From an uncultured Chromatiales bacterium (GTDB lineage Bacteria > Pseudomonadota > Gammaproteobacteria > RBG-16-57-12): 64,000 nucleotides of DNA. Positions 3,059 to 32,322 of the stretch are shown here, in pieces. The stretch lies in assembly GCA_964557295.1 (NCBI GenBank), contig CAZKZP010000004.1:68667-132666 (forward strand), given 5' to 3'. Under the pieces are notes generated by a model, which worked only from the letters and a program-made list of their open reading frames with translations, had not been told where the DNA came from and made no database searches. Positions within the stretch are counted from its first letter, which is position 1. The number at the start of each line of letters is the position of its first letter. Both the position numbers and the translations under genes were made by a program.

Positions 3059-4144
3059 CTATCTCGCCGCATGCCGGATTCGGCGCGCCAGTGATTTCAG
3101 ATCCTGAAACGTGATGGACTCGAGCTCACGATGCCGCGCCAGGAAGCGGTCCAGCTCGCGCAGCGAATACGGCGTGAGCGATTTGGGGTGGCCGATCACA
3201 TTGAAGATGCGCGGCGCGGCACCCGCGGGCAGTTGGCGGAATGCCCGTTCCAGCAAGGCGGCCTTGGCCCCGTCGATGGAGGCCACGCTCGAACTCGACA
3301 GCAGCAGCAGGCGCAGATAATAGCCGCCATCGGCCTGCATCGCCGCGCCGTCGCCGAAGGCCCGATGTGCCGCGCCGCCAAGTTTTTTCTGCACGATCAT
3401 CTTCCAGAAAAACGGCGGCATCACCGTTACAGCGCTGATCGGCACCTCGACGAACGTGCCGGCGTCATCTTCGACGAGCGGGTCCGTGGCAAAGCGCCAG
3501 GTGGACTTCTCCGGCATGCCGCTGAAGTCGAACCAACGCAGCGTATCCCGCGAGATGCCGTTTTGGTAGAGCGTGCTGTCCAGCCAGACGCCCGCCGCCT
3601 GCAAGGCCGGACCGATCCGCTCGAACGGCTGGATGCACCACCCGCCGGCGCGATAGGCAAAGACCGTATCGCCGACGTGCTCCATCAGCTCCGCCTTATA
3701 CGCAGTCACGATGCGGTTGATCTCCGCCTCGGAAAAATCCTGGAGACGATAACGCCGCGCATCGATACGCCACTTCTCGCCGTCGAACGCGCAGTCTTCC
3801 CAATGGGGATGGATGTGCAGCTGCACATCATGTCCCAGGGCTTTGAGGTCACTCAGCTGGCGGGATATCCGCGTGTACTCCCGGCCCAGTCCGGGATGGC
3901 GCGCCGCCTCGCGCTTCAAGCGCAACAGGAATCCCGCGTCGACGAACAAGGTCAGCCTCACCCCGTAGCGGTCGAGCACCGCCAGCAGCGCATCGATCGG
4001 ACGGATCAGGCAATGCTCCACCGAGCCGGTCTTCTCACCAAAAAACAGCTCGTAATCCAGCCCAAGAATCAACTTCACACTCATCAGAATTCCATCGGAA
4101 AAATCACCAGGGCAGATACTCTCACAGCCCCCGCACCCAGACAA
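3059..4144 (-). CDS. polysaccharide deacetylase-like protein (XrtA/PEP-CTERM-associated subfamily); alternative start at 4084 (MSVKL)
   Basis: 361 aa (341 aa from the internal ATG). The N-terminal LILGLDYELFFG motif and His-rich HIHPHWED resemble the PEP-CTERM-locus deacetylase family. Confidence 0.6.
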   Translation of the reverse strand: MSGCGGCESICPGDFSDGILMSVKLILGLDYELFFGEKTGSVEHCLIRPIDALLAVLDRYGVRLTLFVDAGFLLRLKREAARHPGLGREYTRISRQLSDLKALGHDVQLHIHPHWEDCAFDGEKWRIDARRYRLQDFSEAEINRIVTAYKAELMEHVGDTVFAYRAGGWCIQPFERIGPALQAAGVWLDSTLYQNGISRDTLRWFDFSGMPEKSTWRFATDPLVEDDAGTFVEVPISAVTVMPPFFWKMIVQKKLGGAAHRAFGDGAAMQADGGYYLRLLLLSSSSVASIDGAKAALLERAFRQLPAGAAPRIFNVIGHPKSLTPYSLRELDRFLARHRELESITFQDLKSLARRIRHAAR

Positions 4145-4364
4145 TCACCTCGGCCGATGCGCTGCCACAACACGTCGCCCGCCATCAAAGGCGCCGCTGG
4201 CCCGTGTGACGCCACCCACCGACAGCCTGTGATAAGACTCACAAAGCAAGAGGTTCACCCTGTTTTTCGTATAGCACCGAGGCGAAATGTGACTTGTGTC
4301 GCGCAAATTTGTACCGCGACCCACTATGGTAAGCAGCGCAATCCACTAGAGAGACACCCATATC

Positions 4365-6665
4365 ATGCTCAAGAAAATACCCATACTCATTTTCAGCGCA
4401 ACTCTGTGCGCTTGTGGTGGAGGATCGACAGGAAGTGAAAAAAATTCCGGACAGAATAGCCCCCAAGACAATGAGGAAATCGTCGCAGCCATGCAAGGCA
4501 GCGTCGGCGACGGCCCGATCCAGAACGCCGTCATCGCCATCCGCGACAAGAACGGCGCAGTGGTGCAAGCCCTCATGGGCAGCGGCACGGCCAGCTATGA
4601 AACCACGATCAACGTCAAACGAAGGCTCTATCCCCTGACGATCGAAGTCTCCGGCGGCACCGATCTCGTCACCGATACCGCCCCCGACTTCACCTTGTAT
4701 TCAGTCGCGCTCAAGCCGAGTGCATCGAGCACCTTCAACGTCAATCCGTTCACCACCTTCATCACCCGCATCGCGCAGAACATGCCGGGCGGCATTAACA
4801 CCACCAACGTACAAACCGCCACAGATACCGTATTGGCGAATCTGCACGCGGGACTGGATACCACGCTCATCTCCGACACCATTGGTCAAACTGTCGACGC
4901 CAACACGATCGCGGTGATGGTCAAGGCGAGCGAGTCCGTGGGCGAAATCGTGCGCAGAACGCGCGATGGCATTCGGGCAAAAGGCCTGGACGTCACGGGC
5001 GATGACATCGTCGATGCGCTCTCGGCCGACCTCGTCGATGGCAAGATCGATGGCCGCGGCGCTACCGGTGCCGACAACCGCATCGCCGCCGTCGCCAACC
5101 TGGTCACCGGCCAGGTTCTGCTCGAAGTGGTGCGCAACCGCCTGAACGTCAACGGCGCCGAAGCGACCGTGCGCATGGACAACGCCATTATGGCCACACA
5201 TCCCGGCAGCACTAAACTGACCGGCTCGGTGGCCATTACCGGCGAAATCATTGATCAGTCCAAACGTATCGTCGATGTCGTCAACACCATTACCCCGAGC
5301 ACTACATTGGTCGAGATCTCGAAACAGCTTGCCACACTTGCGCCCAATAGTTCCGCCAGTGACGCAGACCGGACTCTGCCAGACGCTGCCAGCGGCGCGC
5401 TCGACGGCGCCATTCAATATGCCCTGCAAGCCGATGCTACCGATCTGAAGGCGATCAATGATGTCGTGCCAGGGCCGCTCCCGACGCAAACGCCTGCGCC
5501 GACCGCAACACCCACTCCGACCCCGAGGGCCACACCAACGCCTGCGCCGAGCGCGGCACCCACGCCGACACCTGCGCCGATCATCGTGCCGGGACCTGGT
5601 CCGACTCTGACGCCCAAGCCGACAGCGACGCCCTCACCGACACCCAAGCCAACGGCGACACCCTCACCCACGCCCAAGCCGACAGCGACGCCCTCACCCA
5701 CGCCCAAGCCAACGGCGACGCCCTCACCGACGCCCAAGCCAACGGCGACGCCCACGCCTGCACCAGGCCCCACTCAAACGCCGAAGCCATCACCTACGCC
5801 CACTCCGGCGCCTCAGGCGGTAGCCCCGGTGCTCAATTCCGCAACCGTTAAAGGAACGGATATTGTACTGGCCTGGTCCCAGGGCAACCCGACACCCGAT
5901 GGTGGCTATGATCTCTTCATCGACAATACCGACACCGGCAGCAAATATCGCACGACCGCCCTATCGCTCACCCTGAGCGGCTTGGATGTATCGGTAGCGC
6001 ATTGCTTCAAGGTCGAGTCCCGGTATGTCGCGCTGAACCAATTCCTGCCCTCGAACGAGCGCTGCACCACACCGGTGGTCACTCCGCAGAATGCAGCGCC
6101 CACCCTCAGCGGCACCCCCGCTGGCAGTGTCGCGGCGGGATCATACTACCTGTTCACGCCGAAGGCATCCGACGCCAATGGCGACACCCTCACCTTCAGC
6201 GTCAGCAACAAGCCTGCTTGGGCCATGTTCGACACCGCCACCGGCAAATTGTCCGGCATCCCGAATGCAGCCAATGCCGGCACCGCCAGCAACATCGTGA
6301 TCACCGCCTCAGATGGCAAGGCCAGCACATCGCTTCCCGCCTTCGCCATCACGGTGACCACTTCAAGCACCGGCGGTGGCAGTGGCAGCGGCAGCGGCAG
6401 CGGCAGCGCCACACTGTCATGGAGCACTCCTACCACCAAGGAAGATGGCAGCCCGATGCCCATGTACGAAATCGCCGGTTATCGCGTCTATCGCGGGACG
6501 GCTCCGGACAAGATGACCGTCATATCAGACATCAAAAACAACACCACGACATCGTATACCGCCACAGCGCTCACGAGCGGGACTCATTACTTTGCCGTAA
6601 CCACATATGACGTCAACAACATCGAAAGCTCACTCTCAAGCGTCATGAGCAAGACGATTCCGTAG
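4365..6665 (+). CDS. modular surface lipoprotein with Pro/Thr-rich tandem-repeat linker, two FN3-like domains, a putative Ig (cadherin-like) domain and a (GS)n linker
   Basis: 766 aa. The N-terminal [21 protein letters not shown] shows a lipobox. A PT-rich region [10 protein letters not shown] is repeated about five times. A putative Ig-like stretch is TLSGTPAGS...[33 protein letters not shown] is followed by an FN3-like C-terminal domain ([10 protein letters not shown]...YRVYRGT...[10 protein letters not shown]). A strong terminator lies immediately downstream. Confidence 0.8.
5610..5758 (+). repeat. in-frame 30-bp tandem repeat (about 4.8 copies) encoding ([10 protein letters not shown])n
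   Basis: The unit acgcccaagccRacRgcgacRccctcaccS repeats head-to-tail. The antisense ORF 5414..5773 ([10 protein letters not shown] repeats) is its shadow. Confidence 0.85.
6372..6407 (+). repeat. hexanucleotide microsatellite (ggcagY)n encoding the (GS)n linker
   Basis: The sequence is ggcggtggcagtggcagcggcagcggcagcggcagc, in frame inside CDS 4365..6665. Confidence 0.8.
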
Positions 6666-6685
6666 AGCCTCCCTCCTTCGGCTCG

Positions 6686-6720
6686 AGAGCAGACAATGCA
6701 TAATTGTCTGCTCTTTTTTT
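6686..6720 (+). terminator. Rho-independent terminator
   Basis: A perfect 12-bp stem (agagcagacaat / attgtctgctct) with a 5-nt loop is followed by a T7 run, starting 21 nt after the stop of CDS 4365..6665. Confidence 0.8.
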
Positions 6721-6934
6721 ATTTATCCCATGCCGCATTTCCCGAGGCTGCCCTGAGCGGCAAAGCACTCGATCCAAGAAACATTTGCCCCCTCCAGCGA
6801 CACTCCCTCGCACGCAGGCAGGCTTGGGATGACGGCATCATGGACACCCCGGAGGTAGTGCAGCGCATCGTGCTGTTACCGAGGAAATCAATAATGGGCA
6901 CTTCTAATAATTCGTCGCACCGGCGAAGGCCGGT

Positions 6935-6985
6935 GTCCAGATCTTTTAAAACACTGGATTCCGGCATTCGCCGGAATGACAAAAT
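6935..6985. repeat. interspersed repeat family 3 copy (gtccagatcttttaaaacactggattccggcattcgccggaatgac)
   Basis: The GTCCAGATYTTTYAAAMC..CTGGATYC core is shared with 11611-11650. It contains the hairpin ttccggc-att-cgccggaa. Confidence 0.5.
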
Positions 6986-7372
6986 TTGAATTTTTAGAGG
7001 TGCCCTAATGCATTAGCGCTTGATTATATCCCGCTCATCCTGGCCTTATCGCCTCGAATCCCGGAGTCCCATCTATGCACCCACTCACCCAAACTACGGT
7101 TTTTTTTGTATCCATGGACGCCATGTTTTTCTATAATCGGGCTTCCCCCTGTTTTATAGAAAACGCTTTCCGTCACTGAATCATGGAAGGCACAAACCGC
7201 TCATCGCGCGGCTGCCGTTTTGTTGTGTGATACAACTCACAACTCATTGATGCTGAATACCATTTTTGCGGAAGAGTTAACACTATTGCATCTAACCTTT
7301 CCTACCGCCGGTCGATACAATTACACAACTTGTCGTACAAATGCGCTTTTGCAGTTGCAGAGGAAGTGAAAA

Positions 7373-7840
7373 ATGAGATCGAGCATCGCAAGCAACATTT
7401 TGAAACTCGTGGCACTGGGAAGCATCACCTTGGCCCTCACTGCCTGCCAGGGTGGACCCTCGGCGAGCAACGAAACCACACCGAATAACACTAACAATGT
7501 GGGCGGCACCGGCAACACTGGTGGTTCTGGATCCGGTTCAGGATCAGGCTCGGGATTGAACATCAGCAAGTCATCGGCGACGCTCAGCTGGTCAGCCCCG
7601 CTGACGGATGAAACTGGCGCCCCCATCAACCTTTATCAACTCGGTGGCTACAAGGTATACCTGGGCAGCAGCGCCGACACCATGACCCCGGTCGTGGATC
7701 TCGCAGACCCTGCCACCACGGAATACACCCTGACCGGCCTGAGCAACGGCACTTATTACATGGCAGTGACCGCCTACGACAACGACCTGATAGAAAGCGC
7801 GCTTTCCACAGTTGTTGAAATCAACGTCAACCATTCTTGA
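7373..7840 (+). CDS. small lipoprotein consisting of lipobox signal peptide, Asn/Thr/(GS)n linker and a single FN3-like domain
   Basis: 155 aa. The signal peptide MRSSIASNILKLVALGSITLALTACQGG carries a lipobox. [11 protein letters not shown] is followed by an FN3-like domain (SATLSWSAPLTDE...YKVYLGS...TYYMAVTAYD) homologous to the C-terminal domain of CDS 4365..6665. Confidence 0.75.
   Translation: MRSSIASNILKLVALGSITLALTACQGGPSASNETTPNNTNNVGGTGNTGGSGSGSGSGSGLNISKSSATLSWSAPLTDETGAPINLYQLGGYKVYLGSSADTMTPVVDLADPATTEYTLTGLSNGTYYMAVTAYDNDLIESALSTVVEINVNHS
7523..7555 (+). repeat. microsatellite encoding the (GS)n linker
   Basis: The sequence is ggttctggatccggttcaggatcaggctcggga, in frame in CDS 7373..7840. 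Confidence 0.7.
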
Positions 7841-7924
7841 TAAACATATTTCCAGGGCGATGCGCGGACTATACTTCTAGCGAATGGTCCCATATCGCCC
7901 AGCCCCCCACAGGAGATCAAAGAG

Positions 7925-9622
7925 ATGAATAAACTTACCAGCGCAACCTGGCTTCTGGGCCTGACCATGCTCGGTTCAAGCGCCGCCCATGCGTATACCC
8001 CACCCATCGGCATTCCAGCACCTTCCTTCGGCATCGATGAAACCGCCCCGGCACAGCCTGCGGCCTGGCCCAGCGGCGAAGCTGCCGGATTCTACTATGT
8101 CGACAAATCCCACCCATCAGCCACTGACACTGGCAACTCGTACGGCTATCCCAACAAGCCTCGACTGACTATTCCGAGAACCACATTTGGCCCAGGCGCT
8201 TACATTGAACTGCACGGGGGAGAATATAGTGGAAGCCTAGGCATGCTCACCTTCGATTGCCGCAAGGAAAACCCTTGCTGGCTGAGAGGTGCCAGCGCAA
8301 GTGTAATGCCGACAATTTCCGGGAACTTTACGCTGGATGCCACTTACCTGATTGTAGAGAATCTCGATTTCAATGGAGGCACAGGCGGCAGTATCGATAT
8401 AGTCAGCGATTCGACTTATGTGTCTGTGCGGCACTCAAAATTCCGCAACAGGGCTTTTGTAAGCAACACCGCCGCAATTGGCATCACACCAGCGCTTGGA
8501 AAAAAATCTCACGACATCGTAGCCTATAAAAATGAGTTCAGCGCGCTTGGTGACTATACGGCAACAGTGGATCTCGATTTTCATGCGATCAACCCGACCC
8601 TCTGGGGGCGTGACAGCACTACTGAGTTATTCAATGTGTGGGCACTTGAAAACCATTGTTACCGCCTAAGCGGCGATTGTGTTCAAGTGAATGCTGGTAA
8701 TTGGACCGACTCTTATAAATATCTGCATCATGTCTATATAGGAAAAAATGTAGGCCATGAAGGACGTCAGGGTCCATTTGGCGTCAAACAATCAAGTGAT
8801 GTAATAATTTCTCAAAACACAGCCTATGGATCGCGCCAACACGGCCCACAAGCAGGCAATGGGATTGGGTTTCAATACGGCCCCAATAATTTATGGATTA
8901 TCTTCAACGATATATCCGATTCTAACTATGGCATTCGGCAAACGGATACCTCCACCCCCTTCCCAAACAACAAGATCTATATTGTCGGAAACGTAATTCA
9001 TAACATTCATCCTGAAGCTAGCATCACCTACAACCCCAACGATGCCTGGAGACCTGGGGTCGCCATATCCTTGTGGCATGGCAACCTGCAACGCTTCATC
9101 GTGGACAACACCATTTATGATGTTCATGGCGGCATTACAGCCATCTATGATGGCCCATTGACCATTTCAAACAACATTATTTCTAATATTCACGATCAGG
9201 ACTATCACTTATACATTGCCCATCCAGCTCGACCAAATCCAACTGCAGATGCCTCTATCGACAGCGGCCTGTTCTACGACCCCGAGCTCGGCAACGCCAA
9301 AATTCGCTGGGAAGGTGGAAATGGTGATTTGCATAACACCCTGACGTCCTTTAAAGCTGCGTATGGGTTATGCGCTGACTGTTCAGTAGGCAATCCCGAC
9401 TTTCTAGATCCAGCGAATGGAAAGTTTGATCTGCAAAAAACATCCGCGGCTATTAATAAAGGCAAAGATCAATCAGTCTACGACACATTTTTCAGTCTAT
9501 ATGGCATAAACATCGAAAAGGACTTCCACGGCCAATCTCGCAAGATTGGATTAAAACAGGACTTCGGTGCATTTGAGGTAGGCCTAGCGCCTACTGCACC
9601 AAGTAATTTTACAGTAAAATAA
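7925..9622 (+). CDS. secreted right-handed parallel beta-helix protein (pectate-lyase-fold polysaccharide lyase/hydrolase candidate), paralog 1
   Basis: 565 aa with a Sec signal peptide MNKLTSATWLLGLTMLGSSAAHA. It contains multiple PbH1-like repeats (NLDFNGGTGGSIDI, IISQNTAYG, GNGIGFQYGPNNLWIIFN, IVGNVIHNIH, IVDNTIYDVHGGI, ISNNIISNIHD). It ends with an FN3-like first strand, APTAPSNFTVK. GC is lower than in the locus core. Confidence 0.8.
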   Translation: MNKLTSATWLLGLTMLGSSAAHAYTPPIGIPAPSFGIDETAPAQPAAWPSGEAAGFYYVDKSHPSATDTGNSYGYPNKPRLTIPRTTFGPGAYIELHGGEYSGSLGMLTFDCRKENPCWLRGASASVMPTISGNFTLDATYLIVENLDFNGGTGGSIDIVSDSTYVSVRHSKFRNRAFVSNTAAIGITPALGKKSHDIVAYKNEFSALGDYTATVDLDFHAINPTLWGRDSTTELFNVWALENHCYRLSGDCVQVNAGNWTDSYKYLHHVYIGKNVGHEGRQGPFGVKQSSDVIISQNTAYGSRQHGPQAGNGIGFQYGPNNLWIIFNDISDSNYGIRQTDTSTPFPNNKIYIVGNVIHNIHPEASITYNPNDAWRPGVAISLWHGNLQRFIVDNTIYDVHGGITAIYDGPLTISNNIISNIHDQDYHLYIAHPARPNPTADASIDSGLFYDPELGNAKIRWEGGNGDLHNTLTSFKAAYGLCADCSVGNPDFLDPANGKFDLQKTSAAINKGKDQSVYDTFFSLYGINIEKDFHGQSRKIGLKQDFGAFEVGLAPTAPSNFTVK

Positions 9623-9741
9623 TCTCCGCGTTGGGCAAGGATGCCCTTGCCCAGATCGTCTGCCCCGCGCGCACCCCACACACCAGATACCAGCTCTAAC
9701 TTTCAGAGTATGATTCCCAGTCCCAGCAGAAGATTTCAACA

Positions 9742-11427
9742 ATGACAAAACATAACACAGCAACCTGGCTTCTGGGCCTGACCATGCTCGGTTCAAGCGC
9801 CGCTCATGCGTATACCCCGCCCATCGGCATTCCAGCGCCCGCGTTCGGCATCGATGAAACCGCCCCGGCACAGCCTGCGGCCTGGCCCAGCGGCGAAAAG
9901 GCCGGGTTCTACTACGTCGACAAGTCCCATCCTTCGGCGACAGACACCGGCAACACATACGGCTATCCCAACAAGCCCCGGTTGACAATTCCGAACACCA
10001 CCTTTGGGCCTGGGACTTACGTTGAGCTGCACGGGGGGACGTATTCCTCAAACATGAGCCTGAACTTCAACTGCACTCAGGCAGCCCCCTGCTGGGTCAG
10101 AGGCGCCAGCGCCACAACCATGCCGACAATCACCGCATCGATGAGCATTAATTCCAAATATTTGATTGTGGAGAACCTCGATTTCAACGGCGGGGTTGGT
10201 GGTGCGTTGAACGTGACGGGTACGTCACAATATGTATCCATCAGGCACTCCAAGATCCGCAACAGGGCGCATCCCACTGGTGCTACCGCCGCCATCGGCC
10301 TCATTCCCGCCCCTGGCCAAAAAGTGTCAGATGTCGTGATCCATAAGGTTGAGTTCAGCGATCTCGGCGACTGGTTACGCCTGGACGATCTGGATTTTCA
10401 CGGTGTCAATCCGAGCCTCTGGGGACGTGACAGCACCGCCGAGCTTTCCAATGTGTGGATTCTTGATAGCCAATGCTTCCATGTGAGCGGCAACTGCGTG
10501 CAGGTCAATGCCGGCAACTGGGCCGATAGCTGGAAATATCTCCACCACGTCTATATTGGTCGGAACGTCTCCCATGCCGGCCGACAGGCAGGTTTCTGGT
10601 CCAAGCAGGCACGGGATGTCATCATCTCGCAGAATACCGTCTATGATAACCGAGCGCACGGCCCCCAACCCGGAGACGGCATCGGCTTCCAATATGGTCC
10701 GGACAACCTATGGATCATCTTCAATGAGATTTACAACTGCAATTACGGAATCCGGCAGTCGGATACTGGCACCAGCGCCAGCACTCACAAGGCCTATATT
10801 CTCGGAAATCTGATCTACAACATTCATCCAGAAGATGTCGCCGCCTACAAGCCGAATGACGGATGGCGGCAAGGACTCGGGATCACCTTGTGGCATGGCA
10901 ATATGCAGCGTCACATCGTCGACAACACCATCTATGATGTACATGGTGGCATTAACACGATCTATGACGGCCCAGTGTCCATGTCAGGGAACATCATTAC
11001 AAACATTCACGATGCAGATTATCACATCAGCAGCTCGCACTCCGCGCGCAGCGGAAACGCATCAATCGACAGTGGGCTGTTCTATGACCCGGAACTGGCC
11101 TCAGCCCGTATCAACTGGAACTGGGCAGATTACACCAGCCTGTCAGCCTTCAAAAGTGGTACGGGGAATATACAATGCAGCGGCTGCGAAGTCGGCAATC
11201 CTGCATTCGTCGACCCGACAACCGGAAAGTTTGACCTGCAAAAAACCTCCTCGGCCATTAACAAAGGGAAGCTGCATTCAGCGTATGACACTTTCTTTAC
11301 GCTCTATGGCATAGACATCAAAAAGGACTTCGCAGGCAGGACTCGCGTACTGGGATTGAAGCCGGACTTCGGAGCCTTTGAGGTGGGTGTAGCCCCTACT
11401 GCGCCGAGCAACTTTACAGTCAAATAG
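9742..11427 (+). CDS. secreted right-handed parallel beta-helix protein, paralog 2 (tandem duplicate of 7925..9622)
   Basis: 561 aa, colinear with paralog 1. The first roughly 170 nt are about 90% identical at DNA level and diverge thereafter. It has the same signal peptide, the same PbH1 repeats and the same C-terminal APTAPSNFTVK. Confidence 0.8.
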   Translation: MTKHNTATWLLGLTMLGSSAAHAYTPPIGIPAPAFGIDETAPAQPAAWPSGEKAGFYYVDKSHPSATDTGNTYGYPNKPRLTIPNTTFGPGTYVELHGGTYSSNMSLNFNCTQAAPCWVRGASATTMPTITASMSINSKYLIVENLDFNGGVGGALNVTGTSQYVSIRHSKIRNRAHPTGATAAIGLIPAPGQKVSDVVIHKVEFSDLGDWLRLDDLDFHGVNPSLWGRDSTAELSNVWILDSQCFHVSGNCVQVNAGNWADSWKYLHHVYIGRNVSHAGRQAGFWSKQARDVIISQNTVYDNRAHGPQPGDGIGFQYGPDNLWIIFNEIYNCNYGIRQSDTGTSASTHKAYILGNLIYNIHPEDVAAYKPNDGWRQGLGITLWHGNMQRHIVDNTIYDVHGGINTIYDGPVSMSGNIITNIHDADYHISSSHSARSGNASIDSGLFYDPELASARINWNWADYTSLSAFKSGTGNIQCSGCEVGNPAFVDPTTGKFDLQKTSSAINKGKLHSAYDTFFTLYGIDIKKDFAGRTRVLGLKPDFGAFEVGVAPTAPSNFTVK

Positions 11428-11572
11428 CCCACTCTATTGGACCATGCTCTAAGCCAGATTCATTATCATCTATATCTCCGTATGGGAATCCGGAGGATAA
11501 AGTGTTACCATTTTCCCGCGTGATGCGTGGAATCCCAGCTCGTCACGACCTTGCTCAGTGATCAGAATATAA

Positions 11573-11612
11573 GGCGCCGCATCTAGATGTGGCGCCCCCA
11601 CGAAGGCGGGGG
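11573..11612. repeat. two consecutive GC-rich hairpins (ggcgccgcatctagatgtggcgcc; cccccacgaaggcggggg)
   Basis: Perfect or near-perfect palindromes seen directly in the sequence, in the intergenic region after CDS 9742..11427. They may act as a terminator or RNA-stability element, but there is no T-run. Confidence 0.4.
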
Positions 11613-11650
11613 TCCAGATTTTTCAAACCGCCTGGATCCTGTCTTCGAGG
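11611..11650. repeat. interspersed repeat family 3 copy (ggtccagatttttcaaaccgcctggatcc)
   Basis: It matches the core of the 6935-6985 copy. Together they bracket the 7373-11427 three-gene segment. Confidence 0.45.
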
Positions 11651-11780
11651 GAATTGAGAGGTTCTGGTATGCAACCTGATAGTCTATCTGACCACTGTGC
11701 AAATCTGATTAAAATTTACCAGGTACCTCATGTGAGCATCCAGTGGTGATGGCTATTTTAGGAATTTATGAGAACTCCGC

Positions 11781-13463
11781 ATGGAAAACACCACCTTTAA
11801 AATACTTAGAAAGTCATCCCATTATCTCATATCGGCTGGATTTCTTCTTCTCTACCTAGCCCTGCCTTCGGCCAATCATAGCTACGCAGATGATAGCCTT
11901 CGGTGGGCTTATGGTATCACGCAAGAAGGCGGCATTATCAACTCTCACCATCTGATTATTAACGCCTTAAGAGAAGCATTTATTCTATTTAACAGTCTAT
12001 TTGATAGCGTATCACCATCAAGCTTCTTAACTATCTACTCAAGTCTCTGGGGTGGCACCGGATTGCTCCTTCTAAGCTTCTTACTAAAAGAAGTTGGATT
12101 GCATAACTCCCGTATAGTCGGCGTCACTCTCTGCGGAATATCTGTTGGTTACTGGTCATACTCTATCGTGGGAGATGTTTATGTGCCCGCAACAGCAAGC
12201 TTGGTGGGAGGCACACTATTCTTTCTGAAGGGATTGAAGCGCAACCCTAGTGCAACTAAACAAGCATACGCCCTTCTAAGCGTCTTGTTTTTTCTCACTG
12301 CAATTATGCATCATCAGGCTTTTTTTGTTTTTGTAATAGGACTTGGATTTATCGGGCTTTTATACAGCAACACACTTAGCAAACAAGGCCTGACTTATGG
12401 CCTCATAATATCAGTAGCGGTCGGGCTTGCGTGCATTGCAATTTATGTTTCTGCTCACAAATTCTCTACCCCTCCGCATGAGGAGTCTCCCTCCACGCTC
12501 CAATTCATGTCCGGCTACGCCTCGAGCTTTACAGCTTACCCAGACATGAAAGACTTATCGCCAGCAACACTTATCAAAGGCGCTGGCGGATTTGCTCGCT
12601 CGCTTGTAAGCACAAACATCTTATTCAGCAATCATTCCTTTGTGGAGAACATTCAAAACAAATTCCCCTATCGTCACATGCTAAGCCAAGTCTATTTAGC
12701 AGAGCAAATGACGTCTTTGCAAATTACAGTCGCCTGGATAGGCCTGTTTATAACCGTATTGATTGCAGCACCGCTCACCATATTCGCACTCTGGTGCTGC
12801 GCAAAAAACCCATCTGCTGCAAAAAAAGTGCTTATATTTTCCGTTGTACCTCAGATGTTATTTTTTTTGTGGTGGGAATCAATATCTGACGAATTTTGGA
12901 TTTGGATACTTCCCTTCTGGGCAATGACAATTTGTTTCGCCGTTGAACGGCTCAAGAAGAACGGCACCCTTATTGCTATTGTATTTTCGGCAGCACTTTT
13001 AGCGGCCAATCTTTGCGCCTCGATACTACCTTACAGCAACTCCAGCTCAGATATTGACCAACGCAACAGCGAATACATCAATACCGTTAAACCTGGCGAT
13101 CTGCTGATATCATTTGATGAAATAATTACAGCACACTTGATAAAACTCTCAGAAAGCAAAATTGGCTTCGAATATATCAATCTATTTGGACCGGCAGAAA
13201 AAGGGCGTGACTTAGAAATAGACAAAATAATCATGCGCGCGGAAGCAGCCATACGGCGCGGTAACTCAATCCATCTTGGCCCCTACTTGATAGATCCCCC
13301 ACGATCATATATGGCACTAGTAGAGCTGCAAACGAAAGACTTCTCCCAACAAAGAGATTTATTGATACAGAAACTTATGCTGCTGAGTCGGGACAGCTTA
13401 AAATTTCACCACCCAAATATAACAATAGATGGGGCATTCTCGAATAGATTGGCGCCCGAGTGA
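11781..13463 (+). CDS. polytopic integral membrane protein of unknown function (possible GT-C-type glycosyltransferase or polymerase accessory protein)
   Basis: 560 aa with about 12-13 hydrophobic segments and a roughly 140-aa hydrophilic C-terminal domain. It is AT-rich (low-GC island). Its stop overlaps the GTG start of the next gene (GTGA). Confidence 0.65.
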   Translation: MENTTFKILRKSSHYLISAGFLLLYLALPSANHSYADDSLRWAYGITQEGGIINSHHLIINALREAFILFNSLFDSVSPSSFLTIYSSLWGGTGLLLLSFLLKEVGLHNSRIVGVTLCGISVGYWSYSIVGDVYVPATASLVGGTLFFLKGLKRNPSATKQAYALLSVLFFLTAIMHHQAFFVFVIGLGFIGLLYSNTLSKQGLTYGLIISVAVGLACIAIYVSAHKFSTPPHEESPSTLQFMSGYASSFTAYPDMKDLSPATLIKGAGGFARSLVSTNILFSNHSFVENIQNKFPYRHMLSQVYLAEQMTSLQITVAWIGLFITVLIAAPLTIFALWCCAKNPSAAKKVLIFSVVPQMLFFLWWESISDEFWIWILPFWAMTICFAVERLKKNGTLIAIVFSAALLAANLCASILPYSNSSSDIDQRNSEYINTVKPGDLLISFDEIITAHLIKLSESKIGFEYINLFGPAEKGRDLEIDKIIMRAEAAIRRGNSIHLGPYLIDPPRSYMALVELQTKDFSQQRDLLIQKLMLLSRDSLKFHHPNITIDGAFSNRLAPE

Positions 13464-14950
13464 AAATCGCTGCTTTAACTTTTTTTATAACACTTTTCTC
13501 TCTTTATGCCTGGAAAGATTGGTATAAATCGCTTTGCGCACTAATCTTTCTTATGGCTTTTCTCGAGCGCCCGGACATTCCAAAGACCATTCTTGATATT
13601 CCGGGCTTTAATCCCTGGAATTTCCTTCTTGCAGTCGTCTTACTGGCATGGCTAGCATCGAAACGGCGAGAAGAGCTGAAATGGGATATGCCTCCCAAAA
13701 TCACATTTCTACTACTTTTTTATTTTTTTGCTATCACTGTTGCAGTTGCCCGCATGCTTAGCGACATTAGCGGCATTACCGAATTTCGATTGGCCGCAGG
13801 ACAGGAAGCTCCAACAAAGTCGGGCTTGATAATTGATTATTATGTCAATTGCATTAAATATACAATTCCAGGGTTATTGCTTTTTATCGGCTGCAACAGT
13901 CGCAGCCGACTAAACTGGGCGCTGGCCGCACTGGCGGGCATGTATTTATTTCTTGCACTCCAAGTCATCAAATGGATGCCCTTAGGGTTGCTCACCGATG
14001 GGGTGGAATTGAGCTATCGGGCATTACGTGTGCTAGACAGAGAAATAGGCTATCACCGTGTCGATTTGTCAATGATCCTTGGAGGGGGGGCTTGCGCCAT
14101 TTTTGCCGCCAGAATATTCGCAAAAAACCAAATTCAATACTTCATCATAATATCTGTTAGCGCTATTACAGCACTCAGCCAGGTGCTTACGGGCGGCCGA
14201 ATGGGTTATGTCACTACTGCGATTATTGGATTAATATTCGCTGCCTTTCGTTGGCGAAAGCTGTTTCTGTTACTACCAATTATGGTCGTCCTGATAACGA
14301 TCTATATGCCCTCGGTTGTAGACCGCTTTACACAAGGTTTCGGAGGCGAATTTGCCACTGAGGAAGCACCACCAACTGTCGTTGCTGAAACGCTCAACGA
14401 GGGCGATGCGGGGCTGTATGCCATGACATCAGGACGCAACTTTGCGTGGCCATTTGTACTAGATAAGATAGCAGAAGCGCCACTTTTCGGTTACGGTTGC
14501 TTAGCGATGCAGAACCTCGGCATTAGCACACACCTATTGCTCAATTATGGCGAGCTTTTTCCGCACCCCCACAACGCTTATCTAGAGCTGATATTTGATA
14601 CGGGATTGTTTGGAGCAATCCCCGTTTTTATCTTATTTGCGCTACTGACAAAATTCAGTTTTTCACTCTTCCGCGACTCAAGCAGCACTATATTCATCGC
14701 CGTAGGCGGTGGAGGACTCGCAATCATCTTGGCCCAACTTATCGCCAGCCTTGGCGCGCAATCTTTCTATCCGCGCGAAGGCACTGTTGCCCTTTGGTGT
14801 GCAATCGGACTGGTGCTGCGCGTTTACATTGAGAGAGCAAAAGCCATCACCATGCGACCCAGCAACTCCGCGCCCATCGATGATCTAATGTGGGGACGTA
14901 AGTTAGCTGAAAAAAATACGTCTATGCGGTTTAACAAACGGTCGCAATAG
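13460..14950 (+). CDS. O-antigen ligase/Wzy-like polysaccharide polymerase family membrane protein
   Basis: 496 aa and multi-TM. It carries a Wzy_C-type motif, YGCLAMQNLGISTHLLLNYGELFPHPHNAYLELIFDTGLFG. The GTG start is overlapped by the upstream stop. It lies in the low-GC region. Confidence 0.75.
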   Translation: MKIAALTFFITLFSLYAWKDWYKSLCALIFLMAFLERPDIPKTILDIPGFNPWNFLLAVVLLAWLASKRREELKWDMPPKITFLLLFYFFAITVAVARMLSDISGITEFRLAAGQEAPTKSGLIIDYYVNCIKYTIPGLLLFIGCNSRSRLNWALAALAGMYLFLALQVIKWMPLGLLTDGVELSYRALRVLDREIGYHRVDLSMILGGGACAIFAARIFAKNQIQYFIIISVSAITALSQVLTGGRMGYVTTAIIGLIFAAFRWRKLFLLLPIMVVLITIYMPSVVDRFTQGFGGEFATEEAPPTVVAETLNEGDAGLYAMTSGRNFAWPFVLDKIAEAPLFGYGCLAMQNLGISTHLLLNYGELFPHPHNAYLELIFDTGLFGAIPVFILFALLTKFSFSLFRDSSSTIFIAVGGGGLAIILAQLIASLGAQSFYPREGTVALWCAIGLVLRVYIERAKAITMRPSNSAPIDDLMWGRKLAEKNTSMRFNKRSQ

Positions 14951-21297: not shown

Positions 21298-22878
21298 TCA
21301 ATCATTCTCGGCAATTCCAAGGCCGAGCCGCTTCGCGAGCGATGTGTTGCGCAAATCATAACGCACTTGTGCGGGCACAAGATATCGCCAATACAAAACC
21401 GCCAATACAAAACCGCCAACCACGCATCCCAGCGCCAGCCCCGCGAGGAGATTGTCCGCGAACAGTACACGGCACCCGGCCAACACCATCAAGAATATCC
21501 CATTGAGCGCCAACGGCCGCAAGAATACCTGACGCACATATGTCCATAATGGAATATCGAGCTTGCGGCAAGCATAGACCGGCAGCAAAATCCCGTTGCT
21601 CAGCGTGAGCGGTATGGTGACCAATAACGCCGCGCTGATTAGGCTCCACCCCAATTGTTCAATCAGCAGCGCCGCGGAGGCAAAGGTCACTAGACTGAGC
21701 AGCAACGAGATCAGCGCGACTTTGCCGTGATGCCCCATCCCCATCAAGATTTTGTATACGGTGCCCTGTGAAACCGGTAAGAAATAGCCGATGGCCAATA
21801 TCGTCATCAGCAACCAGTCTGCATATTCCTGCCCCATCCATACATCGAGCACCACGTCGCCGAAACACACCAGCAGCAGAACAAATGGCAGCGTAAAGGC
21901 AACGCCGTATCGCGCGCTCTTGATCATGAACTCGCGCACTTCACCCGGCACACCGTTTTGATGCAATACGCCAGCGGTTGGTGTCAGAATCATCGAGAAC
22001 CTGCTGAGAAAACCCTCCATGTGGCGAACAAGGGCGATCGGCCGTGAAAACACCGCCAGCGCCGCCGGCCCGAGCTTGGCCACCAGCAATATATTGGTTG
22101 TTTGCACCAGCATCAGGGCGGGCAGTGAAAAAATCATGGCCTTGCCGCCAAATTGAAATGCCTCGACCCCATGCGAGCGACTGACATGCCGGTAGCTCAC
22201 CGTAAGCTCCGGGCATATCCTCCGGACGACAAAAACGCGCGCCACCTCGGTGATGATGGTCACTGACAAATACGCCACCCCTAAGCTGATCAACCCGCCG
22301 CCAAAGGTCAAGGCCGCTATCATGGCGATAACGGCCACAAACCGTCCCGCCGCATTCAGCCCACTATTCAAGTCCCAGCGATGACAGCCAGTGAGCACGC
22401 CGCGGGCCCAATTGAACGCCATTTCAGCCGCCAATGCGGCCCCCAACAGCGATACCACCCAGCCAGCAGTGTTTAACTGGTCTCCCAGCTGTTCTGAGAA
22501 AAACTTTGGGAGTGACCATACGACACCGGCGGTAGCCAGCAGCACAATGAGTGCGATGAAGATCTGTATGAAGACTGTCGAGGATACGATCTTGGACAGC
22601 TCTTCGATTTGGTTGGAAGCGCGATACACCGCCACATACCGGTTGATCGCCGTGCCGATACCCAGGTTGGACAGGCTGATATAGTTGATGAATGACCAGG
22701 AAAAATCCCAGATCCCCAGCGACACCTGTCCCACGTGCTCATCGATCATCCTTGGAATGATGAAGCCCGCGACAAAGAATACCAGGTAACTGCCCCAGCT
22801 CGTGATGACATTCCAGGCGAATCTATCGCGCCCGGTCATGTCCTCCGCTTGTGGCTGTGGCGTGCTTTTATCTGTCAT
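21298..22878 (-). CDS. polysaccharide biosynthesis protein / Wzx-type oligosaccharide flippase (MOP superfamily)
   Basis: 526 aa with about 12-14 TM segments, a hydrophilic N-terminal tail and the expected position in the EPS operon. The C-terminal few codons may run into REP copy B. Confidence 0.7.
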   Translation of the reverse strand: MTDKSTPQPQAEDMTGRDRFAWNVITSWGSYLVFFVAGFIIPRMIDEHVGQVSLGIWDFSWSFINYISLSNLGIGTAINRYVAVYRASNQIEELSKIVSSTVFIQIFIALIVLLATAGVVWSLPKFFSEQLGDQLNTAGWVVSLLGAALAAEMAFNWARGVLTGCHRWDLNSGLNAAGRFVAVIAMIAALTFGGGLISLGVAYLSVTIITEVARVFVVRRICPELTVSYRHVSRSHGVEAFQFGGKAMIFSLPALMLVQTTNILLVAKLGPAALAVFSRPIALVRHMEGFLSRFSMILTPTAGVLHQNGVPGEVREFMIKSARYGVAFTLPFVLLLVCFGDVVLDVWMGQEYADWLLMTILAIGYFLPVSQGTVYKILMGMGHHGKVALISLLLSLVTFASAALLIEQLGWSLISAALLVTIPLTLSNGILLPVYACRKLDIPLWTYVRQVFLRPLALNGIFLMVLAGCRVLFADNLLAGLALGCVVGGFVLAVLYWRYLVPAQVRYDLRNTSLAKRLGLGIAEND

Positions 22879-22905: not shown

Positions 22906-23868
22906 TCATACGTAACCGAAGTTGCGATTGGTTGCACCCGCCTTGGACTCGAACCGAGCAAGATCCGCCGAACTCAACTCCGACTTCCAGCGCTCATCCA
23001 ATCGGATCTGCTCGATTGCCTTTAAGCGCATGTTATTGCCGAGGATGTGATGCTCGACACGATTGAAGTCCGGCGCCGCCTCATTCGGCTCCAACCCGAT
23101 GAAACGATAGATCCGATCCAACACCTGAGCATGATCGCGGCAGAGATCCTCGTAGCGCACGACCAAGTGTTCCTGCGATGTCAGCATTTCGGACATAGAC
23201 TTCATCTCGCTAATCGTGTGCAGCCATTCCTTGAGCGCCCCGTTCATCGTGTGCTGCTCATGCCTCATGTAGGAGCAGGTCACCCCGCGACCGTCACGCA
23301 CCAGTGAAATCACGCGCACCTTTCGCCAGGGCGCCATCATTAAATGCTTGAGTCGCACCGGATCTTTCGATCCGTCCAGAAAGACCTGCCCACCCTTGAT
23401 TCGAGTGATAATCTCAATAAGTGTCAGGTTCTGCAGCAGTATCTGTGAGCGCTTGTCGCGGCAATGCCCGGACCGGCGAAACAAAAATTCACGCCCTGTC
23501 TCAAAACTTCGGCCACGCACCGCAGCATGCAGCAATCGATCGCAAAAATAGTCGTTGTCACGGAAATGCGTGCCGTAATGTTCCAGTGAAAACGGTAAGC
23601 CTTGCTTCGTCATCGCCTCGTCGACCTGCCGCCAGAATCCACAGGTTTTGATCGGGGCGCCGCAGGAGCACTGATAGCGTTCGATGTCCCCCATCGCGGT
23701 CGCCTTCAGTTCACCGATCGTGGATATTTCAGGGTGCGCCGCCATCATCATGGTCAAGAGCGTCGAACCGGAATAACTCGGTGACATGATATATACCAGA
23801 TCACCCAGCGGCCGTTCGTGCGCCACCGTATTAGTTTGCCCCATCCTAAAATCACCTAGCATTGTCAC
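22906..23868 (-). CDS. sulfotransferase family protein
   Basis: 320 aa with an N-terminal PAPS-binding-like P-loop (YIMSPSYSGSTLLTMMMAAHPE) and the fold typical of Stf0/Sulfotransfer_3-type carbohydrate sulfotransferases. Confidence 0.7.
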   Translation of the reverse strand: MTMLGDFRMGQTNTVAHERPLGDLVYIMSPSYSGSTLLTMMMAAHPEISTIGELKATAMGDIERYQCSCGAPIKTCGFWRQVDEAMTKQGLPFSLEHYGTHFRDNDYFCDRLLHAAVRGRSFETGREFLFRRSGHCRDKRSQILLQNLTLIEIITRIKGGQVFLDGSKDPVRLKHLMMAPWRKVRVISLVRDGRGVTCSYMRHEQHTMNGALKEWLHTISEMKSMSEMLTSQEHLVVRYEDLCRDHAQVLDRIYRFIGLEPNEAAPDFNRVEHHILGNNMRLKAIEQIRLDERWKSELSSADLARFESKAGATNRNFGYV

Positions 23869-27381: not shown

Positions 27382-28794
27382 TCACACGGCGCCCTCGCCT
27401 CTCAACACCACCGGCACGGTTTTGAACAGAATCTTCAGATCCAGCTTGAGCGACCAGTTTTCGATATACGCCAGATCCAGTTCCAGCCACTTTTCAAACG
27501 GCAGGCTGCTGCGGCCCGAGATCTGCCACAGGCAGGTCAACCCCGGCTTGACGCTGAACCGTTTGCGCTGGATGCCGCGATCGAACAAGTTGACGTCGCG
27601 TATCGACATTGGCCGCGGCCCTACCAGACTCATATGTCCCAACAGCACATTGAACAATTGCGGCAGCTCATCCAGGCTGGTCTTACGCAGAAACTTTCCT
27701 ATGCGCGTCACGCGGGGATCATTGGCGATCTTGAAGATGGGACCGGAGGCCTCGTTGAGATGCTCGATGTCCTTGAGCTTCTGCTCGCTGCCCTCGACCA
27801 TCGATCTGAATTTGTACATCGGGAATACCCGCTTGCGGTAGCCGACACGCTGCTGCACGAAAAACACCGGGCCGGGCGAATCCAGTTTGATGGCAAGGGC
27901 GATCACCGTCAGGATGGGCAACAGTATCGGCATCGCGGCGGCGGTCAGCACGATGTCGATCAGCCGCTTCAGGAACAGCTCGGCATCGTGCTGGGCCACC
28001 GGCTCGAAATTCAACAGCGGCACGCCGCCCAACACATCCAGCCGCATGCGCGCCACTTGAAAATCAAACAGATCCGCCATCAGCTTCAACATCACGCCTT
28101 CCTCGCTGCAAGCATCGACGATTTTTCCGACATCCTCGATCATTGAGCGTGGAACCGCGAGCACCACTTCATCCACCACATGCCATTTCAAGATATTGCT
28201 GATCTCATCCACTGTGCCGATCACCTTCGACCCGCAGAGCTCTGTACCGACCATGTCCGGGTCGATATCCAGATAGCCGACGACATCCACCCCCCAATTC
28301 GAGTTCTTCTTCAGCAGTTCCGTGACCCGGACGGCACGCTCCCCGGTGCCCACCACCAGGACCTTCAGGCGGTTCTCATCCTTGATCTTGAATCGCTTGA
28401 AATACCACCATGTCAGTATCGCGCGGTTCAGAATGAGAAACGCCACGCTCACGACCGTAAATGCCGTGATGACGATCCGGCTGATGCCCTGCTCACCCAG
28501 GAAAAACAGCATCATGATGAGCAAGGCCAGGGTCAAGATATAGCCTCGGGCGACAATCCATGCATAGTTCACCATGGAGATGCGCAACTGTCGGTAGGCC
28601 CCCCAATAACTGAAGCTCAATCCCAGCGACGGCAGAATGATTGGCAAGAGCGCCAGATGCAGGATGGTATCGACTTCCTTGCCGGGAACAAACATTGCGT
28701 GGGCGTGCACTGCCCAGATGTAGCAAAGCACGATGACAAGCCCATCGAGCACAAAAACCAATCGACTTAGATGTTTTGATTTATCGTCTATCAT
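27382..28794 (-). CDS. undecaprenyl-phosphate sugar-1-phosphate transferase (bacterial sugar transferase family, EpsB/WbaP-like initiating enzyme)
   Basis: 470 aa with N-terminal TM helices and a C-terminal catalytic domain (DSPGPVFFVQQRVG...FKFRSM...DELPQLFNVLLGHMSLVGPRP). Confidence 0.85.
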   Translation of the reverse strand: MIDDKSKHLSRLVFVLDGLVIVLCYIWAVHAHAMFVPGKEVDTILHLALLPIILPSLGLSFSYWGAYRQLRISMVNYAWIVARGYILTLALLIMMLFFLGEQGISRIVITAFTVVSVAFLILNRAILTWWYFKRFKIKDENRLKVLVVGTGERAVRVTELLKKNSNWGVDVVGYLDIDPDMVGTELCGSKVIGTVDEISNILKWHVVDEVVLAVPRSMIEDVGKIVDACSEEGVMLKLMADLFDFQVARMRLDVLGGVPLLNFEPVAQHDAELFLKRLIDIVLTAAAMPILLPILTVIALAIKLDSPGPVFFVQQRVGYRKRVFPMYKFRSMVEGSEQKLKDIEHLNEASGPIFKIANDPRVTRIGKFLRKTSLDELPQLFNVLLGHMSLVGPRPMSIRDVNLFDRGIQRKRFSVKPGLTCLWQISGRSSLPFEKWLELDLAYIENWSLKLDLKILFKTVPVVLRGEGAV

Positions 28795-30943: not shown

Positions 30944-32320
30944 TCAGAATTCAGCCTTGAGGCCCAGCCTCGCCGCCAACTCCTCGTATTCCTTCGTGAG
31001 GTCCGTGGAATCCATATTCGCCGCCGAGACTCCCGCATCGATCGAGATCGTTTTGCTCACCGTTCGCACCAAGGACATCTCATACACGCGGTACCGATCA
31101 TTCCGATACCCCGACAGCCGCTTCCACGTCCGCCCGGCGCGCTGAGACAATATCGCATTGGTTCGGGGACCGAGAGTGTAGGTAAAGACCGCACGCTCCT
31201 GCGCCTCCCATTCCTTCTTGTCGCTTTCGACATCCTCACGCTCGCGCGCAAACCCATAGAACGCCAGCCGAAGCCTCTTCGCGAGCGTGAACTCCGCCGT
31301 GCCCCGCGCAGTCCTGTTGACAATGAACTGATTGAGATCGCTCAGCAAGGAATCCGGCGCCAGGGCATCGCTCTGCACCCGATTATACTGCTGATCGATC
31401 GTCTCCTCGCTGTAGCCGAATGTCAGCGTCGACGAGGGATTGCGCATCGTAAAATCGACCGAATAGGCATTGCCATAAAACCGGTGCCCGTAACTCAAGG
31501 CCAGCCTGGTCCTCGGCGTCATCGCCCACTGCGCCTGCGCCTGCCATGTGGTTGAGTCAAAATCCCTGTCGGGAAAACGCGTAAACTCGTAGGTCTCCGT
31601 GCCTGCCGCGCCTCCCAGCCGCCAAGTCTCATTCAACAGATAACTCACGCCGGCATTCAGCGTTAGCGCCGTCAGCTGATCATTGGTATAAACGTAGTCC
31701 GTTTCGCGCTTTGCGCCCTCCGCCCACCAATCCAACCGGCCTTGCCTGTCAGACATGACGCTCAGGATCGTCGCCGCCTGATTCTTGTTCAAATCCACCC
31801 GCGTCTCGTGCCGCTGATAGAATATCGCATGACGCGCTGAAAACTTGACGGATGGACCCAGGCTCAGATTGAGGTACGGGGAGGCCGAATAATTTCTCAC
31901 CTGCTCGCGCTCCCCCTTGAGCACGCGCGACACAGACGCCACACCCTCCTGGTTTCTCCTTTCCTCGAAGGCCACACGCCCATCCAGTCCGAATAGATTC
32001 TCCGTCGCCTGGGCATTGCCGCTCACACGCATCGAGCCGTAGTGATCGTCATACGCGGAATTGTTGCGGTACATCACCTGATTGACATAGCCATCGAAGC
32101 TGCCGCTGAAATGCCTGGACTGCTGCGTGATGCGCACGCCGGGAACCAAGGTTGTAATCACATCAGCTTGCGCCGCGGATTCCTCGAGCAAGGCGTTATC
32201 CGTATACAGGGCCTCTGCCCGAAGATACGGGGCGATCTCCCACGTGCCGGCGACACCGGGCGGTGCGCCCAGGAGCATAAGCAATGCCCCGGCAGAAGAT
32301 CGAATCCAGAAGCGTGTCAT
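30944..32320 (-). CDS. PEP-CTERM-system-associated outer-membrane beta-barrel protein (start taken at MTRFW; ORF-track start 32371 would overlap the upstream gene)
   Basis: The signal peptide is MTRFWIRSSAGALLMLLGAPPGVAG. The body has alternating amphipathic beta-strand patterning rich in Y/F/R and ends with a C-terminal Phe (..GLKAEF). Confidence 0.65.
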   Translation of the reverse strand: MTRFWIRSSAGALLMLLGAPPGVAGTWEIAPYLRAEALYTDNALLEESAAQADVITTLVPGVRITQQSRHFSGSFDGYVNQVMYRNNSAYDDHYGSMRVSGNAQATENLFGLDGRVAFEERRNQEGVASVSRVLKGEREQVRNYSASPYLNLSLGPSVKFSARHAIFYQRHETRVDLNKNQAATILSVMSDRQGRLDWWAEGAKRETDYVYTNDQLTALTLNAGVSYLLNETWRLGGAAGTETYEFTRFPDRDFDSTTWQAQAQWAMTPRTRLALSYGHRFYGNAYSVDFTMRNPSSTLTFGYSEETIDQQYNRVQSDALAPDSLLSDLNQFIVNRTARGTAEFTLAKRLRLAFYGFAREREDVESDKKEWEAQERAVFTYTLGPRTNAILSQRAGRTWKRLSGYRNDRYRVYEMSLVRTVSKTISIDAGVSAANMDSTDLTKEYEELAARLGLKAEF

Positions 32321-32322
32321 GA

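Follow-up and report, generated by a model that had tools for sequence, protein, structure and literature searches.

A predicted lipoprotein with a repeat-encoded Pro/Thr stalk and a conserved N-terminal base module at the edge of an XrtA/PEP-CTERM exopolysaccharide locus

Introduction

The PgcA protein of Geobacter sulfurreducens is built from a lipobox, an N-terminal 'secretion domain', (PT)x linkers and small payload domains (PMC5732950, PMC10570954, PMC11520253). The linkers are flexible, protease-resistant spacers with a reach of about 18 nm (PMC11520253). The 'secretion' domain comprises residues 58–252, and the non-heme N-terminal domain is available as PDB entry 9i0e. The present work concerns a gene of an uncultured Chromatiales bacterium (contig CAZKZP010000004.1 of assembly GCA_964557295.1), for which PgcA is the closest functional analogue. 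The gene occupies positions 4365–6665 on the plus strand of a 64,000-nucleotide stretch (positions 68,667–132,666 of the contig), hereafter the window, and encodes a predicted modular lipoprotein of 766 residues. On balance, it probably encodes an accessory protein of the XrtA/PEP-CTERM exopolysaccharide locus in the window, lipid-anchored and most likely exposed at the cell surface.

Extended spacers of similar origin occur elsewhere. In the glycanases CenA and Cex of Cellulomonas fimi, (PT)n-type spacers stand between globular modules; their length varies among homologues and derives from short in-frame DNA repeats. The protein described here shares such repeat-derived Pro/Thr spacers, but CenA and Cex are secreted enzymes in which the linker joins catalytic and binding modules, whereas here a lipid-anchored base is joined to non-catalytic β-sandwich modules. 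For the Vlp lipoproteins of Mycoplasma hyorhinis and the repeat-region spacers of Gram-positive adhesins, such as the SD repeats of ClfA, experiments have demonstrated either size variation at high frequency or a requirement for length. In-frame tandem repeats set the spacer length of a surface-anchored protein in those cases as they would here, where, however, the length differences are between species and the repeat units have already diverged.

The resemblance to PgcA extends to the order of the parts: a lipobox, a cofactor-free N-terminal domain made of a β part and a second part, Pro/Thr linkers (116 residues with 40% Pro and 27% Thr in the present protein) and small globular payloads (PMC10570954, PMC11520253). 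The differences are the absence of CXXCH haem motifs, payloads that are Ig- and FN3-like instead of cytochromes, a base module about 140 residues longer, and a context of exopolysaccharide synthesis instead of metal respiration. As it has no haem domains and no sequence similarity to PgcA, the protein is not a member of the PgcA family. It is neither a PEP-CTERM protein nor a phase-variable switch, and works in the manner of other anchored modular proteins whose spacers are made from repeats. With the XrtA/PEP-CTERM system (Haft et al. 2006, PMC1569441) it shares its location, at the edge of a complete XrtA locus, and the Poly_export, BBP2_2, Bac_transf and histidine kinase/sigma-54 regulator genes of such loci are recurrent neighbours of its homologues. 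It differs in carrying no PEP-CTERM signal and in matching none of the NCBIfam models of the described system components.

Results

Domain organization of the protein

The complete open reading frame (ORF) of 766 codons is present as described in an earlier note on this DNA, and the modular architecture proposed there is borne out. The domain order is lipobox, N-terminal domain of about 330 residues (the base module), 116-residue Pro/Thr stalk, weakly FN3-like domain, He_PIG domain, Gly/Ser hinge and terminal FN3 domain. The choice of start codon is supported by the aligned N-termini of two homologues encoded on contig L001 of a metagenome-assembled genome (MAG), 'Pseudomonadota bacterium MAG326'. 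Antisense ORFs span the repeat region (for example 5414–5773, minus strand), and all homologues found support the plus-strand reading.

The signal peptide (4365–4415) passes PROSITE rule PS51257. Two lysines, K3 and K4, supply the positive charge that the rule seeks as K or R within the first seven residues. The h-region is uncharged, and the lipobox L14-C15-A16-C17 conforms to the pattern [LIVMFWSTAG]2-LIVMFYSTAGCQ-[AGS]-C, with the Cys at position 17 of an allowed range of 15–35. A Cys at position −2 of the lipobox is an unusual but allowed residue, and the segment SLCAC is identical in both L001 homologues. Across the family, a lipobox followed by GGG is conserved, Cys17 is invariant in the family alignment (A1), and most complete members have a lipobox. 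In agreement with the earlier call, the protein is a predicted lipoprotein, in which Cys17 would be the lipidated residue. The lipid anchor is separated from the first fold by a disordered 27-residue tether rich in Gly, Ser and Asn (4416–4496). The predicted local distance difference test (pLDDT) score is low over about the first 30 residues, and the N-terminal insertions and deletions relative to L001 are confined to this tether.

The base module, residues ~38–368, matches no Pfam or NCBIfam model, and the earlier note had described this region as of unknown fold and proposed structure prediction. A full-length AlphaFold2 (AF2) model from the single sequence was unusable (pLDDT 34). With an alignment of 44 sequences, residues 1–368 were modelled with a pLDDT of 92 and a predicted template modelling score of 0.88. 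The model consists of a transthyretin/CarboxypepD_reg-like β-sandwich (residues 38–125; 4476–4739, plus strand), which begins with an invariant GSVGDGP motif, followed by a helical bundle that spans residues 128–367 in the model (annotated as residues 128–368; 4746–5468, plus strand). Invariant residues in the bundle are E190, E194, R197, R198, D222, D225, D229, G230, G232 and N258. The charged cluster E190/E194/R197/R198/D222/D225/D229 suggests a conserved binding site, possibly for a cation. No relative was found among PDB sequences, including PgcA 9i0e, with phmmer or with two profiles, and a Foldseek search of the PDB with the model gave nothing below an E-value of 1e-3. The link to PgcA is a resemblance at the level of the predicted fold, not demonstrated homology.

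Three β-sandwich domains follow the stalk. The earlier note had listed two FN3-like domains and one Ig-like domain, and searches with domain hidden Markov models gave them unequal support. The He_PIG domain (PF05345; putative Ig, dystroglycan-type cadherin-like; residues 579–665, 6099–6359) scored 38.1 bits against a gathering cut-off of 24, with an E-value of 2.1e-9. The terminal FN3 domain (residues ~677–766, 6393–6662), the commonest C-terminal module of the family, matched fn3 (PF00041) over residues 677–743 with 23.7 bits, just under the cut-off of 25 (E-value 5.8e-5), and is backed by a family profile that matches fibronectin FN3 structures (2.4e-9). The first β domain (residues ~485–573, 5817–6083), of about 90 residues, has no Pfam match. 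A profile of three homologues gave a marginal full-length match (E-value 0.018) to the chitinase A1 FnIII domain, 1k85, so that its FN3-like character is weakly supported. Homology between this domain and the terminal FN3 was not detected (hhalign probability 0.7%).

CXXCH haem motifs were found neither in the protein nor in 255 family members. The C-terminus, ending in SSVMSKTIP, shows no PEP motif, transmembrane helix and basic tail. Since this sorting signal is absent, the protein is not an exosortase substrate. Among the 255 members, a single one passed a loose PEP regular expression, and its tail is not a genuine signal.

Tandem repeats in the stalk and hinge

The stalk (residues 369–484; 5469–5816) contains 46 Pro, 31 Thr and 14 Ala residues. 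Within it, five in-frame 30-bp units extend from 5610 to 5759. Tandem Repeats Finder (TRF) reported a period of 30 with 4.8 copies, 89% matches and a score of 234 (5609–5753). The array is the top-scoring tandem repeat of the window, the others scoring at most 68, and holds the only exact direct repeat in the window of at least 25 bp within 200 bp, which is 29 bp long at an offset of 60. The next longest is 24 bp at an offset of 30. Units 1–4 encode one 10-residue peptide and unit 5 a variant of it. The description of the units as nearly perfect was a slight overstatement, as units 1–4 differ in five columns. All five are third codon positions and all differences are synonymous, with a probability of about 0.004 if they were randomly placed. 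An older, degenerate repeat of three 24-bp units lies upstream in the stalk (5499–5569; TRF 70% matches, score 72).

The second tract reported previously, (ggcagY)n at 6372–6407, reads GGCGGT followed by (GGCAGY)5 and encodes the 12-residue Gly/Ser hinge between the He_PIG and terminal FN3 domains. TRF gave it a period of 6 and 7 copies (6367–6408). It is codon-aligned, like the 30-bp array. The repeats are a confirmed and not a chance feature of the gene. Repeats that switch a gene on and off have a unit that is not a multiple of three or lie in a promoter; both periods found here, 30 and 6 bp, are multiples of three inside the ORF, so that the repeats cannot act as such a switch.

As the differences between units are all synonymous third-position changes, the 30-bp array is not young but old enough for its units to have diverged, and the stalk peptide is under purifying selection. 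The synonymous divergence speaks for a peptide that is being maintained and against a tract that has slipped recently. A companion lipoprotein encoded downstream contains a (GS)5 run written in mixed codons, without a DNA repeat. A property of the peptide, and not the instability of the DNA, therefore appears to be what is kept.

The sole close relative, at 73% identity, was found on L001 by a scan of genome contigs. No relative closer than this was present in the genome, metagenome or protein collections searched; two metagenome scans yielded none closer than 45%, and no database record of the exact protein was found. The L001 locus is syntenic and comprises two tandem lipoprotein copies (707 and 746 residues), a small lipoprotein, one β-helix gene and a Wzy_C gene. 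In a three-way alignment of the window protein and the two L001 copies, the folded domains are 71–73% identical without a single insertion or deletion. All insertions and deletions fall in the disordered N-terminal tether, the Pro/Thr stalk, an inter-domain hinge and the Gly/Ser hinge, which upholds the earlier statement that the repeats lie in inter-domain linkers whose length can change without a frameshift. The stalk measures 116, ~96 and ~57 residues in the three homologues, and the Gly/Ser hinge 13, 9 and 5. The tether of the companion lipoprotein, which is conserved in L001, also differs in length there.

Each copy has its own repeat unit in the stalk, 30 bp × 4.8 in the window and 12 bp × 9 and 24 bp × 3.5 in L001. 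Tandem expansions have therefore arisen independently and repeatedly at one position, as slippage or unequal recombination would produce. Judged from these alignments, linker length varies over evolutionary time, between species and between paralogues. A mosaic origin of the window gene, by a crossover in the linker between the two L001 paralogues, was unsupported. The informative sites divide 55:43 in the N-terminal domain and 14:22 in the He_PIG and FN3 domains, with no clear switch.

These data also bear on a faster process, in which the gene would be a contingency-type locus encoding a rapidly size-variable surface protein. Copy number would change frequently within a population, giving subpopulations with different stalk lengths that serve, for example, to escape phages or grazers or to tune adhesion, on the pattern of the Vlp lipoproteins of M. 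hyorhinis. The in-frame position of both repeats within linkers and the finding of three repeat units and three lengths at one site in three homologues fit this proposal. Moreover, the identity of the lipoprotein to its L001 counterparts, 71–73%, compared with 88% for the neighbouring β-helix protein, suggests faster evolution. On the other hand, at least five synonymous changes separate the units, the longest stretches of exact repetition are 29 and 24 bp, and the hexanucleotide tract has only five copies; short imperfect tracts of this kind are not typical of high-frequency variation. The Gly/Ser tether of the companion, encoded without a DNA repeat, likewise speaks against it. Rapid size variation is thus regarded as clearly unlikely.

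The base-module family

An exhaustive search of 1.84 billion representative proteins returned 505 proteins at an E-value ≤1e-3, 295 of them at ≤1e-30. In these 505 representative clusters, the base module is always N-terminal and starts ~35–80 residues from the N-terminus, and total lengths in the family range from 273 to 2426 residues. A word-indexed search of 5.8 billion proteins gave 278 relatives, none more than 45% identical, mostly from gammaproteobacterial MAGs, Thiogranum longum and vent or sediment metagenomes.

In nearly every member the base module is followed by a low-complexity linker of 0–127 residues (median 25), and the 116-residue stalk of the window protein lies at the long end of this range. 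The repeat units of these linkers are mutually unrelated (EPAPQ, GGTTT, TDPVT, EPPP, PEPQ, GGSST). On two metagenomic contigs (L014, 10001–12525; L016, 10001–12704), gene calling splits the homologous lipoprotein gene into two or three consecutive ORFs, the N-terminal domain and then He_PIG pieces. The breaks lie at or just past the linker and could be frameshifts or assembly errors in repetitive linker DNA.

The payloads of 62 representatives include He_PIG (34), Big_9 (28), fn3 (22), RibLong (17), Calx-beta (11) and cadherin-like domains. Also found were F5/8 type C (4), Malectin (3), Pectate_lyase_4 (3) and Beta_helix (3). They are typical extracellular adhesion and glycan-binding or glycan-cleaving modules.

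The payloads and linkers help to weigh a different topology. The protein could be attached to the inner leaflet of the outer membrane, or be retained at the inner membrane, with a stalk that crosses the periplasm and peptidoglycan to reach the inner-membrane polymerisation and export machinery and whose length is matched to the width of the periplasm. A precedent is E. coli LpoB, which reaches PBP1B through a long disordered linker. Facing the periplasm is the default for Gram-negative lipoproteins, the estimated stalk contour of ~36 nm would be of the order of the periplasm width, and the products of the Poly_export, chain-length determinant and Bac_transf genes with which the lipoprotein gene clusters act in the periplasm and inner membrane. 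Yet payloads such as cadherin-like, RibLong, Calx-beta, F5/8 type C, malectin and pectate lyase domains, in proteins of up to 2426 residues, are typically extracellular, and a periplasmic span of fixed width is hard to square with linkers of 0–127 residues within one family. A further argument is that PgcA, whose N-terminal domain the base module resembles at the level of fold, is a lipoprotein exported to the outside of the cell. A periplasm-spanning protein is therefore considered unlikely, and a surface location is the preferred reading.

Genomic context

The window carries a complete XrtA/PEP-CTERM exopolysaccharide locus. An XrtA-EpsI fusion exosortase (38633–40180, minus strand; XrtA residues 15–272, EpsI residues 337–496) is flanked by PrsT (35825–38602), PrsR (40202–41545) and PrsK (41584–43641), a textbook XrtA/PEP-CTERM regulatory and sorting core. 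The locus further encodes a priming transferase (27382–28794), an outer-membrane protein (30944–32371), a tyrosine autokinase (32323–33120), a chain-length determinant (33117–34628) and an export protein (34687–35406), together with WecB/WecG-type enzymes, a sulfotransferase, an amidotransferase, GT4 transferases and a Wzy_C protein.

The association with polysaccharide genes recurs. Nine of the eleven distant homologue loci on long contigs lie in polysaccharide clusters, which with L001 and the window makes 11 of 13. In three of them (L012, L016 and L018) the order is Poly_export, BBP2_2, Bac_transf, lipoprotein, histidine kinase and sigma-54 regulator.

At the outer end of a plus-strand block (4365–14950) stands the lipoprotein gene. 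An intrinsic terminator-like hairpin with a 13-pair stem and a T run lies 20 nucleotides past its stop codon (6685–6715). Upstream of 4365 no sigma-70 consensus promoter was found. For a sigma-54 promoter of the PrsR type used by PEP-CTERM genes there was no match near 4145–4364, and matches across the window were below chance. A divergent 361-residue ORF without a Pfam or NCBIfam match (3059–4144, minus strand) lies on the other side of this upstream region, which appears conserved in L001.

Downstream of the gene is that of the companion lipoprotein (7373–7840, plus strand; 155 residues), which has the lipobox LTAC, a short Gly/Ser/Thr tether and one FN3 domain. This domain is 51% identical to the terminal FN3 of the 766-residue protein. 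The short tether of the companion and the long one of the larger protein thus appear to display an FN3 unit of one type. Next come two tandem genes for secreted right-handed β-helix proteins of 565 and 561 residues (7925–9622 and 9742–11427; 7925–11427 in total, plus strand; Pfam Beta_helix/NosD), which are likely functional partners. They share 67% identity, and the second shares 88% with its single counterpart in L001 (7208–8893). The β-helix gene is duplicated in the window and the lipoprotein gene in L001. Evolution at the edge of the locus therefore proceeds through tandem duplication, affecting a different gene in each genome.

Proximity to β-helix genes is found in L001 too, and at one distant locus (L017) Pel9A-like β-helix genes lie just downstream of the homologue, as in the window. 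β-helix or pectate-lyase domains are also fused to the base module in 3 of the 62 family representatives. Because these domains are fused in some proteins and adjacent in others, a functional link to polysaccharide processing is supported.

A further possibility is that O-glycans, or even the exopolysaccharide, are attached to the Ser/Thr-rich stalk by the ligase-like Wzy_C-family enzyme of the locus (13460–14950) or by another membrane glycosyltransferase, so that the lipoprotein would anchor polysaccharide covalently to the cell. The Wzy_C family includes O-antigen ligases and PglL-type O-oligosaccharyltransferases, and the PT linkers of secreted Gram-positive glycanases are O-glycosylated. 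The stalk offers 37 Ser/Thr in its 116 residues. The Wzy_C gene belongs to the same plus-strand block, another lies near the distant homologue at L012, and PMT_2 and GT87 membrane glycosyltransferases are encoded at L016. An enrichment in Ser, Thr and Asn in PEP-CTERM proteins has been noted, with glycosylation suggested (Haft et al., PMC1569441). However, many linkers of the family (EPAPQ, EPPP, PEPQ) have no Ser or Thr, for which reason glycosylation cannot be their general role, and Wzy_C proteins are routine polymerases in such loci. A glycan-acceptor stalk is judged very unlikely.

Other features of the region were noted. The segment 11781–16200 is a low-GC block (44–48%, against ~60% elsewhere) that encodes a 560-residue polytopic membrane protein without a Pfam or NCBIfam match, the Wzy_C protein and a GT4 transferase. 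As the gene of the 560-residue protein is absent from the syntenic L001 locus, the block may be a cassette that is specific to a polysaccharide type and came in by horizontal transfer. A sulfotransferase and a heparinase II/III-like protein (22906–23868 and 28819–30852) encoded inside the XrtA locus hint at a sulfated polysaccharide. Finally, a perfect 14-bp tandem repeat of 2.4 copies (CGCCAATACAAAAC) is found at 21386–21419, near the 3′ end of a minus-strand ORF (21298–22878) of 526 residues without a family match. Its period is not a multiple of three, and a change in copy number would shift the frame.

Discussion

In the explanation preferred here, the protein would be exported by the Sec pathway and lipidated on Cys17. 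With Gly as the +2 residue, sorting to the outer membrane by the Lol system is expected. The base module, with its transthyretin-like sandwich and its helical bundle bearing the invariant acidic and basic cluster, would sit near the membrane on the 27-residue tether. From it, a stiff, protease-resistant Pro/Thr stalk would carry the three β-sandwich binding modules (FN3-like, He_PIG and FN3). At 0.31 nm per residue, its contour length is calculated to be up to ~36 nm. The last FN3 would hang on the flexible Gly/Ser hinge. These modules may engage the polysaccharide matrix or the neighbouring secreted β-helix glycan-processing enzymes, and in this way tie the matrix to the cell envelope or position the enzymes. 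The in-frame 30-bp and 6-bp repeats would make and resize both spacers through replication slippage or unequal recombination, each 30-bp unit adding up to ~3 nm. The lipidation itself, the location at the outer membrane and cell surface, the ligands of the modules and any variation of length within a population are predictions of this explanation.

Several points weigh against it. Gram-negative lipoproteins face the periplasm by default, and surface exposure is predicted here. No sequence relative of known function was detected for the base module, and the roles ascribed to the protein and its family rest on sequence and model. The gene stands at the very edge of the locus, adjoining unrelated genes, and two of the eleven distant homologues are encoded outside polysaccharide loci. 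The upstream region shows neither a sigma-54 nor a sigma-70 consensus promoter, so that control by PrsR is not indicated. The longest exact repeats are merely 29 and 24 bp, and rearrangement rates may consequently be low.

Repeat-encoded Pro/Thr and Gly/Ser spacers are well known in anchored and secreted modular proteins, and the finding as first stated was an ordinary one. What is added is a base module of ~330 residues without a Pfam or NCBIfam model, which now has a confidently predicted fold and about 500 clusters. It is found mostly in environmental Gammaproteobacteria, is recurrent in XrtA/PEP-CTERM-type loci, and is fused or adjacent to glycan-binding and β-helix modules.

A broader proposal, which is offered as a speculation with a low probability of being correct, is that the base module serves the surface lipoproteins of Proteobacteria as a general and so far unrecognised 'display base'. 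As a distant homologue of the PgcA 'secretion domain', it would bring about export to the outer face of the outer membrane, or docking there, beside the polysaccharide export machinery, while the repeat-built stalks would form an evolvable ruler for projecting adhesin, lectin and lyase payloads into the exopolysaccharide. In a stronger form of the proposal, the Ser/Thr stalk would itself be a covalent attachment point for the polysaccharide. Should the base module prove to act in surface display or docking and to be related to the PgcA secretion domain, it would offer a way to study how the matrix is attached to the cell in flocs and biofilms, and would bear on how Gram-negative lipoproteins reach the surface.

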